From Escherichia coli (lineage in GTDB: Bacteria > Pseudomonadota > Gammaproteobacteria > Enterobacterales > Enterobacteriaceae): DNA of 64,000 nt. Made by a program: the position numbers. The stretch is from assembly GCF_044324875.1 (NCBI RefSeq), contig NZ_CP172185.1; one strand, given 5' to 3'. Positions 50,301-52,793 of the stretch are shown here, piece after piece (within the stretch, counting starts at the first letter, position 1; each line of letters opens with the position of its first letter).

Positions 50301-52793
50301 TGATGTTAATCAGCCTGAAGAAGCGCTGCGCAAGAAAAGGGCCTGATCATGAGTGAAAAAAGCATTGTTCAGGAAGCGCGGGATATTCAGCTGGCAATGG
50401 AATTGATCACCCTGGGCGCTCGTTTGCAGATGCTGGAAAGCGAAACACAGTTAAGCCGCGGACGCCTGATAAAACTCTATAAAGAACTGCGCGGAAGCCC
50501 ACCGCCGAAAGGCATGCTGCCATTCTCAACCGACTGGTTTATGACCTGGGAACAAAACGTTCATGCTTCGATGTTCTGTAACGCATGGCAGTTTTTACTG
50601 AAAACCGGTTTGTGTAATGGCGTCGATGCGGTGATCAAAGCCTACCGTTTATACCTTGAACAGTGCCCGCAACCAGAAGACGGACCGCTGCTGGCATTAA
50701 CCCGTGCCTGGACATTGGTGCGGTTTGTTGAAAGTGGATTACTGCAACTTTCCAGCTGCAACTGCTGCGGCGGCAATTTTATTACCCACGCTCACCAGCC
50801 TGTTGGCAGCTTTGCCTGCAGCTTATGTCAGCCGCCATCCCGGGCAGTAAAAAGACGTAAACTTTCCCAGAATCCTGCCGATATTATCCCACAACTGCTG
50901 GATGAACAGAGAGTACAGGCTGTTTAACTTATACGGTGTGGTGCAACATTCCAGCAGCGGTAACGACGTACCGCTGCTTTTTTTTGCCCCAATCGCGCGT
51001 TAACGCCTGACGACTGAACATCCTGTCATGGTCAACAGTGGAAGGATGATGTCGTGCTTATCTTATTAGGTTACCTGGTTGTTCTCGGTACAGTTTTCGG
51101 CGGTTATTTGATGACCGGTGGAAGCCTTGGAGCACTCTATCAACCCGCTGAACTGGTGATTATTGCCGGTGCAGGGATTGGGTCGTTTATCGTCGGCAAT
51201 AATGGCAAAGCGATTAAAGGCACGCTGAAGGCGCTGCCGTTGCTGTTTCGTCGCTCCAAATACACCAAAGCAATGTATATGGATCTGCTGGCTCTGCTTT
51301 ATCGGTTGATGGCGAAATCGCGGCAGATGGGGATGTTTTCGCTGGAACGTGATATTGAAAATCCCCGTGAGAGCGAGATCTTCGCCAGCTACCCACGCAT
51401 CCTTGCGGATAGCGTCATGCTTGATTTTATCGTCGATTATCTGCGTCTGATTATCAGCGGTCACATGAACACCTTCGAAATCGAAGCCCTGATGGATGAA
51501 GAGATTGAGACGCACGAAAGCGAAGCAGAAGTCCCGGCGAACAGTCTGGCGCTGGTCGGGGACTCACTTCCGGCGTTTGGTATTGTCGCGGCTGTGATGG
51601 GGGTCGTTCACGCGTTAGGTTCAGCCGATCGTCCTGCCGCCGAGCTGGGGGCGCTTATCGCACATGCGATGGTGGGGACTTTCCTCGGTATTTTATTGGC
51701 TTACGGATTTATTTCCCCATTAGCGAGTGTTTTACGTCAGAAAAGCGCCGAAACCAGCAAAATGATGCAGTGCGTCAAAGTCACACTGCTTTCTAATCTG
51801 AACGGTTACGCACCGCCTATCGCCGTTGAGTTTGGTCGCAAAACGCTCTATTCCAGCGAACGTCCGTCGTTTATTGAACTGGAAGAGCATGTGCGTGCGG
51901 TGAAAAATCCGCAACAACAGACGACAACCGAGGAAGCATGAAGAATCAAGCGCATCCGATTATTGTCGTCAAACGACGCAAAGCCAAAAGCCACGGGGCA
52001 GCACATGGATCGTGGAAGATTGCTTATGCCGACTTTATGACCGCGATGATGGCCTTTTTTCTGGTGATGTGGCTAATCTCCATCTCCAGCCCAAAAGAGC
52101 TGATTCAGATTGCGGAGTACTTCCGGACTCCACTGGCGACTGCGGTTACGGGCGGCGATCGCATTTCTAATAGTGAAAGCCCAATTCCCGGTGGGGGTGA
52201 TGATTACACCCAAAGCCAGGGGGAAGTGAATAAGCAGCCGAACATCGAAGAGCTGAAAAAACGCATGGAGCAAAGTCGATTGCGGAAATTGCGTGGCGAT
52301 CTCGACCAGTTGATAGAGTCCGATCCGAAACTGCGGGCGTTACGTCCACATCTCAAAATCGATCTGGTCCAGGAAGGTCTACGTATTCAGATCATCGATA
52401 GCCAGAATCGCCCGATGTTTAGAACCGGCAGTGCCGATGTGGAACCCTATATGCGCGACATTCTGCGCGCCATCGCGCCTGTACTGAACGGTATTCCCAA
52501 CCGTATTAGCCTTTCAGGTCATACCGATGATTTTCCCTACGCCAGCGGTGAGAAAGGTTACAGCAACTGGGAGCTTTCTGCCGATCGGGCCAATGCATCC
52601 CGCCGCGAACTGATGGTCGGCGGGTTGGATAGCGGCAAAGTGTTACGTGTCGTCGGCATGGCGGCAACGATGCGCTTAAGCGATCGCGGACCTGATGATG
52701 CCGTCAACCGTCGCATCAGCCTGCTGGTACTGAACAAACAAGCCGAACAGGCCATTTTGCATGAAAACGCCGAAAGCCAGAATGAGCCAGTAA

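Follow-up and report, generated by a model that had tools for sequence, protein, structure and literature searches.

The closest described system is the MotR small RNA of Escherichia coli K-12. In that strain a MotR band of ~95 nt, weaker when fliA is deleted and enriched with Hfq, has been reported; its promoter was placed in the flhC coding sequence and is common to motAB-cheAW, and longer bands were attributed to read-through of the MotR terminator, giving the motAB-cheAW mRNA (Melamed et al. 2023, eLife, PMC10578931). K-12 MotR pairs via a central single-stranded region (~nt 39-55) within the fliC and rpsJ coding sequences and promotes flagella synthesis. It is bound by Hfq, RIL-seq recovers it in chimeras with fliC and rpsJ, and the chromosomal motR-M1 seed mutant has fewer flagella, lower motility and lower reporter activity (Melamed et al. 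2023, PMC10578931). MotR*, in which nt 6-8 are changed from UGC to GAG, was published without explanation as a 'more abundant derivative identified by chance'.

The promoter has also been described in its own right. The 28-mer TAAACTTTCCCAGAATCCTGCCGATATT is the FliA ChIP-seq site '(flhC)motAB-cheAW' of K-12 (Fitzgerald et al. 2014 PLoS Genet), and the constraint on FlhC Ala-Asp has been published (Fitzgerald et al. 2017 bioRxiv, 10.1101/188474). These papers treat the site as the motA mRNA promoter, and a short terminated RNA is not discussed.

The motR locus of the window

We analysed the flhC-motA region in a stretch of 64,000 nt of an E. coli genome (NCBI RefSeq assembly GCF_044324875.1, contig NZ_CP172185.1), hereafter the window (Table 1). 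The name MotR, given in the sequence-only reading of this DNA, is correct. Comparison with the published coordinates (RefSeq NC_000913.3, ncRNA motR, b4828, 1977208..1977302, minus strand, 95 nt) puts the K-12 RNA exactly on 50891-50985, with 92 of the 95 bases identical and three substitutions. Primer SM001 (5'P-ACAACTGCTGGATGAACAGAGAGTAC), which defines the +1 of MotR in the published cloning, begins at 50891. The first 37 nt of MotR are also the final 37 nt of flhC.

Table 1. Coordinates of the features of the flhC-motA region in the window
Feature	Coordinates	Strand	Basis or remarks
flhC CDS, 192 aa	50349..50927	+	ORF list; RefSeq annotation of identical or near-identical E. coli genomes
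Sigma-28 (FliA) -35 element, TAAACTTT	50858..50865	+	7/8 match to TAAAGTTT; identical to K-12 FliA ChIP-seq site
Sigma-28 -10 element, GCCGATAT	50877..50884	+	7/8 match to GCCGATAA
MotR sRNA, 95 nt	50891..50985	+	Maps exactly onto RefSeq motR b4828; +1 = cloning primer SM001; ~95 nt Northern band published
MotR nt 5-12, CUGCUGGA, 5' strand of proposed anti-terminator	50895..50902	+	Inverted repeat, nascent-RNA folds; contains MotR* nt 6-8
Target-pairing (seed) region, MotR nt 39-55	50929..50945	+	M1 primers SM467/468; K-12 alignment; predicted rpsJ duplex
MotR nt 60-67, UCCAGCAG, 3' strand of proposed anti-terminator	50950..50957	+	Inverted repeat, nascent-RNA folds
Intrinsic terminator hairpin	50953..50978	+	10 bp stem, 6-nt loop, -16.7 kcal/mol folded alone
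Terminator U-tract, MotR 3' end	50979..50985	+	7 unpaired U; RefSeq motR 3' end maps to 50985
Rest of motA 5' UTR, 68 nt	50986..51053	+	Read-through transcripts only; has GGAAGGA Shine-Dalgarno region
motA CDS, GTG start, 295 aa, first gene of motAB-cheAW	51054..51941	+	ORF list

A sigma-28 promoter had been claimed for the last 70 bp of flhC, and it is indeed found there: it starts exactly 70 bp from the end of the gene and reads TAAACTTT-N11-GCCGATAT (50858-50884; equivalent to TAAA-N15-GCCGATAT). Its -35 element overlaps the FlhC codons R-K-L and its -10 element overlaps Ala177-Asp178-Ile, with 6 nt between the latter element and the start of MotR. With 14 of 16 consensus positions (TAAAGTTT-N11-GCCGATAA) and an 11-nt spacer, it qualifies as a FliA class 3 promoter, and the 28-mer of the window is identical to the '(flhC)motAB-cheAW' ChIP-seq site. 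Allowing at most one mismatch, TAAA-N15-GCCGATAW has 8 matches in the window versus 0.62 expected, a number that none of 100 shuffles reaches, and four of the seven other matches are tabulated K-12 FliA sites (fliDST, fliC, tar, fliL). A sigma-70 promoter scan of positions 50300-51300 gave no site.

The strong hairpin followed by T8 that had been noticed 68 nt ahead of the motA GTG was likewise recovered. Its arms, AGCAGCGGTA (50953-50962) and TACCGCTGCT (50969-50978), form 10 perfect pairs, 6 of them G-C. The T run comprises 8 T (50978-50985), the first of which closes the stem and leaves 7 unpaired, and it ends 68 nt before the GTG at 51054. Hairpin and U-tract together (50953-50985) are the top terminator-like match within 50300-51300, and the hairpin appears in the minimum-energy fold. 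The fold of the leader (50891-51090) has a z-score of -2.34, with no interpretable structure besides the terminator. A 13-codon ATG ORF in the leader (51028-51069) was taken as a chance occurrence, as it has no evident Shine-Dalgarno sequence and is out of frame with motA. A point absent from the sequence-only reading is that the hairpin lies 25 nt past the flhC stop codon; it is thus also positioned to terminate flhDC transcripts, and we infer that it should end them as well.

This region is almost certainly the E. coli motR locus, in which transcription starts from a sigma-28 promoter, partial termination yields MotR and read-through yields the motAB-cheAW mRNA. In the proposed sequence of events, sigma-28 (FliA) RNA polymerase would begin at A50891, downstream of a class 3 promoter in the last flhC codons. 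Part of the transcripts would end at the intrinsic terminator (50953-50978 and the U-tract to 50985), releasing the 95-nt Hfq-binding MotR, and the remaining ones would pass it to give the motAB-cheAW mRNA, whose 163-nt leader begins with the 95 nt of MotR. The expected leader RNA of ~95 nt ending at the hairpin agrees with the 95 nt of 50891-50985 and with the published ~95 nt fliA-dependent band, and the expected read-through into motAB-cheAW with the read-through bands of Melamed et al. 2023. A chance co-occurrence of promoter and hairpin was rejected in view of the exact match to annotated and experimentally mapped features.

What we establish for the window is the correspondence to motR in sequence and coordinates, the anatomy of the promoter and terminator, conservation and covariation. 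The identification is based on the K-12 annotation and on papers from one laboratory, and sigma-28 dependence, the ~95 nt size, Hfq binding, read-through and targets are taken from the literature. The architecture of a 3' hairpin with a U-tail is present in the MotR of the window, Hfq binding itself being published for K-12 only. The available parts of the main text and supplement of the E. coli Term-seq paper (PMC7815308) contain no MotR 3' end, so that its assignment depends on the RefSeq annotation and on the size of the Northern band.

MotR, its promoter and the read-through are already known, since this RNA has been described in E. coli; the observation was correct but not new, and beyond re-identifying a published sRNA, it shows only that the strain studied here carries an intact locus. 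Rfam contains no MotR family, and an Rfam 15 covariance-model search of 49000-52500 (E <=1) gave no match; PGAP-annotated genomes do not annotate motR either. For these reasons, essentially no E. coli genome apart from K-12 MG1655 carries a MotR annotation.

Conservation of the locus and polymorphism of the seed

The comparative set consisted of 102 Enterobacterales flhC-motA loci. A promoter with at least 14 of 16 consensus positions and 11-nt spacing is found in 98 of them, TAAACTTT is present in 97, and GCCGATA is retained in 101. Wherever motA lies downstream (100 loci), its start codon is GTG. We thereby reproduced the Enterobacterales-wide conservation of the promoter and the invariant FlhC Ala-Asp of the Fitzgerald papers. 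A strong U-tract terminator is restricted to two families, with 34/34 loci in Enterobacteriaceae and 13/16 in Erwiniaceae, so that MotR-type RNAs would appear to be limited to Enterobacteriaceae and most Erwiniaceae. Yersinia, Photorhabdus, Rahnella and Serratia have hairpins at the equivalent position, but these lack a U-tract. In the terminator stem, 97.2% of cells are paired, and its top two pairs covary among 50 species, with 14 cells changed on both sides; none of 500 shuffles reaches the observed covariation.

Within E. coli, 5376 of 5426 complete genomes carry the motR locus, and the exact 95-mer of the window was found in a single one of the 5426. Over nt 20-75, the K-12 haplotype is shared by 2949 genomes, as opposed to 1/5426 with the haplotype of the window. 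The three differences from K-12, at positions 50930, 50939 and 50942, all place a U in the RNA, replacing G at nt 40, A at nt 49 and C at nt 52. Two of them flank the seed nucleotides altered by the published M1 mutation (GTG to CAC), which maps to 50936-50938. Although the intergenic stretch around it varies, the GUGG seed core is kept across genera. The comparison shows that E. coli genomes differ from one another in the MotR seed.

Computed against K-12 rpsJ, as rpsJ lies outside the window, K-12 nt 39-55 and positions +140..+155 of the rpsJ coding sequence have a predicted duplex energy of -22.4 kcal/mol, versus -16.1 kcal/mol at the same site for the allele of the window (~6 weaker), in which U49 is a mismatch and U52 a wobble. 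Because the two seed-adjacent changes weaken the predicted rpsJ duplex, target regulation by this MotR allele may differ from that in K-12.

A candidate anti-terminator helix and other readings

As an addition to the main explanation, MotR termination might be set by a built-in RNA anti-terminator, a helix of nt 5-12 with nt 60-67 that would determine the ratio of MotR to motAB-cheAW mRNA. We put this forward tentatively, as a model-based proposal with somewhat less than an even chance of being right. The two segments form an 8-nt repeat (50895-50902 / 50950-50957) that is 100% complementary and was independently reported by a repeat finder. Within UCCAGCAG, AGCAG constitutes the lower 5' terminator arm (5 nt of overlap), and the UCC preceding it is not part of the stem. 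Once nt 60-67 emerge, nt 5-12 (CUGCUGGA) would pair with them and sequester this lower arm; the hairpin would then need to form by strand displacement during the time that polymerase is on the U-tract, and some polymerases would read through into motA. On transcripts from the flhDC promoter, ribosomes would occupy nt 5-12 (FlhC codons L-L-D), an occupancy that we infer, and termination would consequently be tighter there.

Folding predictions are consistent with this scheme. The helix has a probability of 0.99-1.00 in folds of nt 1-68 to 1-78, and the nascent-length folds predict that it is mutually exclusive with the terminator and the first of the two to form. In full-length MotR, the terminator beats the anti-terminator helix by ~4 kcal/mol (-29.3 versus -25.2). 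In MotR*, the probability of the three mutated pairs falls to 0 and that of the remaining pairs to <=0.36. Shuffled sequences give a complement of at least 8 nt at p ~0.013 and an arm sequestration equal to or greater than the observed one at p ~0.012.

Among species, the helix is predicted with P >=0.9 in 50/50 of those that have the terminator, and the 8-bp core is paired in 399/400 cells. Five of the eight pairs are invariant, and the other three each depart in a single sequence; in an uncultured Cedecea, A-U replaces G-C as the only compensatory change, and one U-G wobble occurs. The helix is extended to 10 bp in most Erwiniaceae sequences, both added positions pairing in 12 of 50 rows. 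UCC, which does not belong to the terminator stem, is retained by 49-50 of the 50 sequences, and the adjoining upstream columns are variable. However, 128 of 500 shuffles give at least as many pairs with a double change as the single one observed, covariation being nearly uninformative for a helix that almost never varies. Moreover, CUGCUGG is coding and equally conserved in Yersinia, Serratia and Pectobacterium, none of which has a U-tract terminator. Its conservation thus needs no RNA explanation, and we rejected it as evidence for an anti-terminator.

Other observations also weigh against the helix. Intrinsic terminators are often leaky without an anti-terminator, a strain with a thyA cassette replacing flhC still had motA expression sufficient for motility, and greater stability, rather than stronger termination, could account for the abundance of MotR*. 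If the anti-terminator is real, it could make the terminator tight for translated flhDC transcripts and leaky for untranslated sigma-28 transcripts; it would also account for the higher abundance of MotR*, whose mutation (nt 6-8) would destroy the helix. Our literature search found no subsequent publication that deals with the terminator of MotR or with an anti-terminator. We regard the helix, unreported so far, as a lead.

A protein-based explanation of the read-through is less probable still, and we consider it unlikely. According to a speculation of Melamed et al. 2023, MotR raises S10 levels and S10 promotes read-through of the motR terminator, forming an autoregulatory loop. Overexpression of MotR or MotR* raises motB, cheW, tar and cheZ mRNA in the wild type but not in a nusB deletion (Melamed et al. 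2023), in line with such a loop, and promotion of read-through by S10 was explicitly speculated by these authors, who nevertheless labelled it a hypothesis. The S10 loop and an RNA anti-terminator are not mutually exclusive.

Finally, that the hairpin serves solely to terminate the flhDC operon, and that the ~95 nt RNA arises without function from a promoter happening to lie upstream, is most improbable: this reading can call upon the 25 nt between flhC stop and hairpin, on the equivalent hairpins without U-tract in Yersinia, Photorhabdus, Rahnella and Serratia, and on an flhC deletion that is non-motile when complemented with an flhC plasmid because the motA promoter is lost, implying little motA expression from upstream transcription, but it is already disfavoured by the published phenotypes of the chromosomal motR-M1 seed mutant, as well as by Hfq binding, the RIL-seq chimeras with fliC and rpsJ and the GUGG core conserved across genera.

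The motR locus as sRNA source and leader remains our preferred reading. Together with the anti-terminator lead, the comparative results suggest a simple, testable cis mechanism whereby one promoter and one terminator would split the output between a regulatory RNA and the motor/chemotaxis operon, and they could be of use in research on flagellar regulation.

Comparison with known systems

The RNA of the window resembles K-12 MotR (b4828; Melamed et al. 2023, eLife 12:RP87151) in its position, from the flhC 3' end to the motA leader, and in its length of 95 nt; the promoter, 5' end, terminator stem, loop and U-tract are all identical. It differs from K-12 MotR by U40, U49 and U52, which make up a rare haplotype. 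With respect to the intragenic flhC FliA promoter that drives motAB-cheAW (Fitzgerald et al. 2014; 2017 bioRxiv 188474), there are no differences over the 28-mer. The locus is also akin to sRNAs generated from 5' UTRs by premature termination, in that the leader RNA ends at an intrinsic terminator before the first gene and read-through provides the mRNA. Like classical terminator/anti-terminator attenuators, the motR leader has a predicted, mutually exclusive upstream helix. Unlike them, it has no evident switching ligand, leader peptide, protein or tRNA signal, and the proposed anti-terminator strand lies at the very start of the transcript and doubles as coding sequence of the gene before it.

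Identity of the leader RNA

The sequence-only reading placed a sigma-28 promoter in the last 70 bp of flhC and a strong hairpin followed by T8 68 nt before the motA GTG. Both promoter elements lie exactly where it put them, the promoter beginning 70 bp ahead of the flhC end, and its hairpin and T-run positions are exact. Over 50800-51100 the window has 100% identity to E. coli O158:H23 strain CFIAFB20140388, and 5376 of the 5426 complete genomes of the species carry this segment, annotated flhC / motA every time.

Features of the flhC-motA region and sigma-28 matches at other K-12 FliA sites
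Feature	Coordinates	Strand	Description
flhC	50349-50927	+	ORF list; flhD, motB and cheA likewise on + strand, ~50 kb
sigma-28 promoter	50858-50865, 50877-50884	+	TAAACTTT, spacer 11 nt, GCCGATAT; from sequence
terminator hairpin	50953-50962 / 50969-50978	+	10 bp perfect stem, loop 6 nt, -16.7 kcal/mol
T run	50978-50985	+	68 nt upstream of motA GTG
motA	51054-51941	+	GTG start; ORF list
fliDST site	25086-25112	-	sigma-28 match
fliC site	25205-25231	+	sigma-28 match
tar-tap-cheRBYZ site	55444-55470	+	sigma-28 match
fliLMNOPQR site	6332-6358	-	sigma-28 match

RefSeq NC_000913.3 carries on its minus strand a 95-nt ncRNA, motR (b4828, 'small RNA MotR', 1977208..1977302), which overlaps the flhC 3' end. 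Compared with these published coordinates, the window matches exactly at 50891-50985, with three substitutions (nt 40, 49 and 52, counted from +1 at 50891). The 5'-phosphorylated MotR cloning primer, ACAACTGCTGGATGAACAGAGAGTAC, also starts at 50891, 6 nt from the -10 element, and window 50858-50885 is identical to the 28-mer TAAACTTTCCCAGAATCCTGCCGATATT reported as the FliA ChIP-seq site '(flhC)motAB-cheAW' (Fitzgerald et al. 2014). MotR originates from the motA 5' UTR, and its promoter within the flhC CDS also serves motAB-cheAW; its ~95 nt band is much weaker in a fliA deletion, it co-immunoprecipitates with Hfq, and longer bands were ascribed to read-through of its terminator (Melamed et al. 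2023, eLife 12:RP87151, PMC10578931). Because RefSeq motR, the primer and the FliA site all match, the observation is confirmed, its interpretation as a ~95 nt sigma-28-dependent leader RNA with read-through is supported, and the feature is already known. MotR is a validated sRNA with an annotation gap: motR is annotated in K-12 MG1655 only, nothing is called between flhC and motA in four PGAP-annotated E. coli genomes (L122-L125), and Rfam 15 holds no family matching it.

A 13-nt inverted repeat (85% complementary) links 50842-50854 (GGGCAGTAAAAAG), inside flhC and upstream of the sigma-28 start, to 50977-50989 (CTTTTTTTTGCCC), which corresponds to the terminator U-tract plus GCCC. Both arms would be present in flhDC-derived transcripts only, and the repeat may be a chance A-run/T-run complementarity.

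Conservation of promoter and terminator

With at most one mismatch, the sigma-28 pattern has 8 matches in the window versus 0.62 expected, a number reached by 0 of 100 shuffles; K-12-listed FliA sites (fliDST, fliC, tar, fliL) account for four of the other seven matches. The fliD promoter has a consensus -10 element, GCCGATAA, versus ACCGATAA in the K-12 table, and the tar spacer differs from that of K-12 by one base.

Using a DNA pattern built from the FlhC peptide DWFMTWEQ, we found 120 Enterobacterales loci; 104 sequences, window and K-12 among them, were long enough downstream, and motA follows in 102. Its predicted start is GTG in 102/102 (100/100 from other genomes, plus the window and K-12). 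A promoter matching the consensus at 14 or more of 16 positions with 11-nt spacing is present in 98/102 loci, in nearly all beginning 70 nt before the flhC end, and GCCGATA is retained in 101/102. This reproduces the published conclusion that, among FliA promoters, that of motAB-cheAW is the best conserved and that it constrains FlhC Ala177-Asp178 (10.1101/188474). In Enterobacter cloacae DSM 26481 (NZ_CP056117.1), the flhC frame stays open for 11 codons beyond its normal end and encodes an unrelated C-terminus, which suggests a frameshift near the flhC 3' end, in the promoter region; the sigma-28 match there has 10-nt spacing.

Strong U-tract terminators, defined by at least 6 T preceded by 45 nt that fold at -14 kcal/mol or lower, are found in most of the 102 loci, about 46-51 nt past the flhC stop. 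With genera assigned to the families to which we take them to belong, they occur in 34/34 Enterobacteriaceae, 13/16 Erwiniaceae and 9/12 unassigned MAGs, and in 0/40 Yersiniaceae, Morganellaceae, Pectobacteriaceae and Hafniaceae loci. The latter often have a hairpin at the equivalent place without a U-tract, and that of Yersinia (CAGCAGCGGTAT...TACCG...) can be recognised as a homologue of the terminator stem in E. coli. From this distribution, MotR-type terminated RNAs are probably limited to Enterobacteriaceae and Erwiniaceae, in agreement with the reported conservation of the sRNAs in 'some of the Enterobacteriaceae' (PMC10578931). Across 50 aligned sequences, the stem hardly changes in its lower 8 bp. 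Covariation is seen at its top two pairs: both sides are changed in 14 cells, pairing holds in 97.2% of cells, and 0/500 shuffles reach this. The clinical catheter isolate E. coli 20Y000092 (L122, NZ_CP138217.1) has an 11-nt deletion of TGCTTTTTTTT, equivalent to window 50975-50985, which takes away the lowest part of the terminator's 3' arm together with the entire U-tract; the isolate should produce no discrete MotR and read through constitutively.

A candidate anti-terminator helix

MotR nt 5-12 (CUGCUGGA, 50895-50902) are fully complementary to nt 60-67 (UCCAGCAG, 50950-50957), a pair also returned independently by a repeat finder, with a predicted duplex energy of -12.9 kcal/mol. As AGCAG also makes up the lower part of the terminator's 5' arm, this helix and the terminator are mutually exclusive. 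That the helix measurably tunes termination is a tentative proposal, towards which we lean slightly less than against it. In folds of nascent lengths (nt 1-68 to 1-78) its probability is 0.99-1.00 for window and K-12 alleles alike; folding of all 95 nt favours the terminator (-29.3 vs -25.2 kcal/mol). MotR*, a published derivative found by chance with nt 6-8 UGC changed to GAG, is predicted to abolish the helix (probability 0 for the three mutated pairs, at most 0.36 for the others). Should the helix slow folding of the terminator, MotR* would be expected to terminate more often and to accumulate more; higher abundance is its reported phenotype, although greater stability alone may account for this.

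Shuffles of the upstream 57-59 nt gave a complement of at least 8 nt in 1.3% of cases and equally strong arm sequestration in 1.2%. The helix is predicted (P >=0.9) in 50/50 terminator-bearing species, with 399/400 cells of the 8-bp core paired. Uncultured Cedecea shows compensatory G11A and C61U changes, Pluralibacter gergoviae retains a U-G wobble, and in most sequences from Erwiniaceae the helix is 10 bp long (CUGCUGGAUG / CAUCCAGCAG), both added positions being paired in 12/50 aligned rows. UCC, outside the terminator stem, is retained in 49-50 of 50 sequences, and the preceding columns are variable. However, the helix hardly varies, so its covariation is uninformative; CUGCUGG is coding sequence and just as well conserved in lineages that lack the terminator; a terminator can leak without any anti-terminator; and a thyA-replacement strain lacking flhC still had sufficient motA expression to be motile.

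Ribosomes translating flhC would cover nt 5-12 of flhDC-derived transcripts, making the terminator tighter for those. The authors of the MotR paper speculated that S10-NusB favours read-through past the motR terminator (PMC10578931), a possible mechanism that is compatible with the anti-terminator helix. We found no report of this helix in the literature searched; the proposed helix and the seed polymorphism described below, both computational, are the only points here that extend past published work.

Seed variation and MotR function

MotR pairs within the fliC and rpsJ (S10) coding sequences and increases flagellin mRNA, S10 and flagella number; the chromosomal seed mutant motR-M1 (GUG to CAC) has fewer flagella and lower motility (PMC10578931). 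These seed-mutant phenotypes lead us to disfavour the reading in which the flhDC terminator yields the short RNA as a by-product without function. The M1 primers place the mutated GUG at nt 46-48 (window 50936-50938), and the seed GUGG core is kept amid variable intergenic sequence in the 50-sequence alignment. The predicted duplex between K-12 MotR nt 39-55 and rpsJ CDS +140..+155 (-22.4 kcal/mol) matches the published site, and that of the window allele is weaker (-16.1 kcal/mol). This allele, which differs at 50930, 50939 and 50942, is rare: a single genome among the 5426 complete ones has its exact 95-mer. Among these E. coli genomes, nt 20-75 haplotypes include the K-12 type (A49, C52; 2949), U49/A54 (1133) and U49/C54 (587); U49 is usual in other genera. 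This seed polymorphism, observed computationally, extends what the literature describes for MotR.
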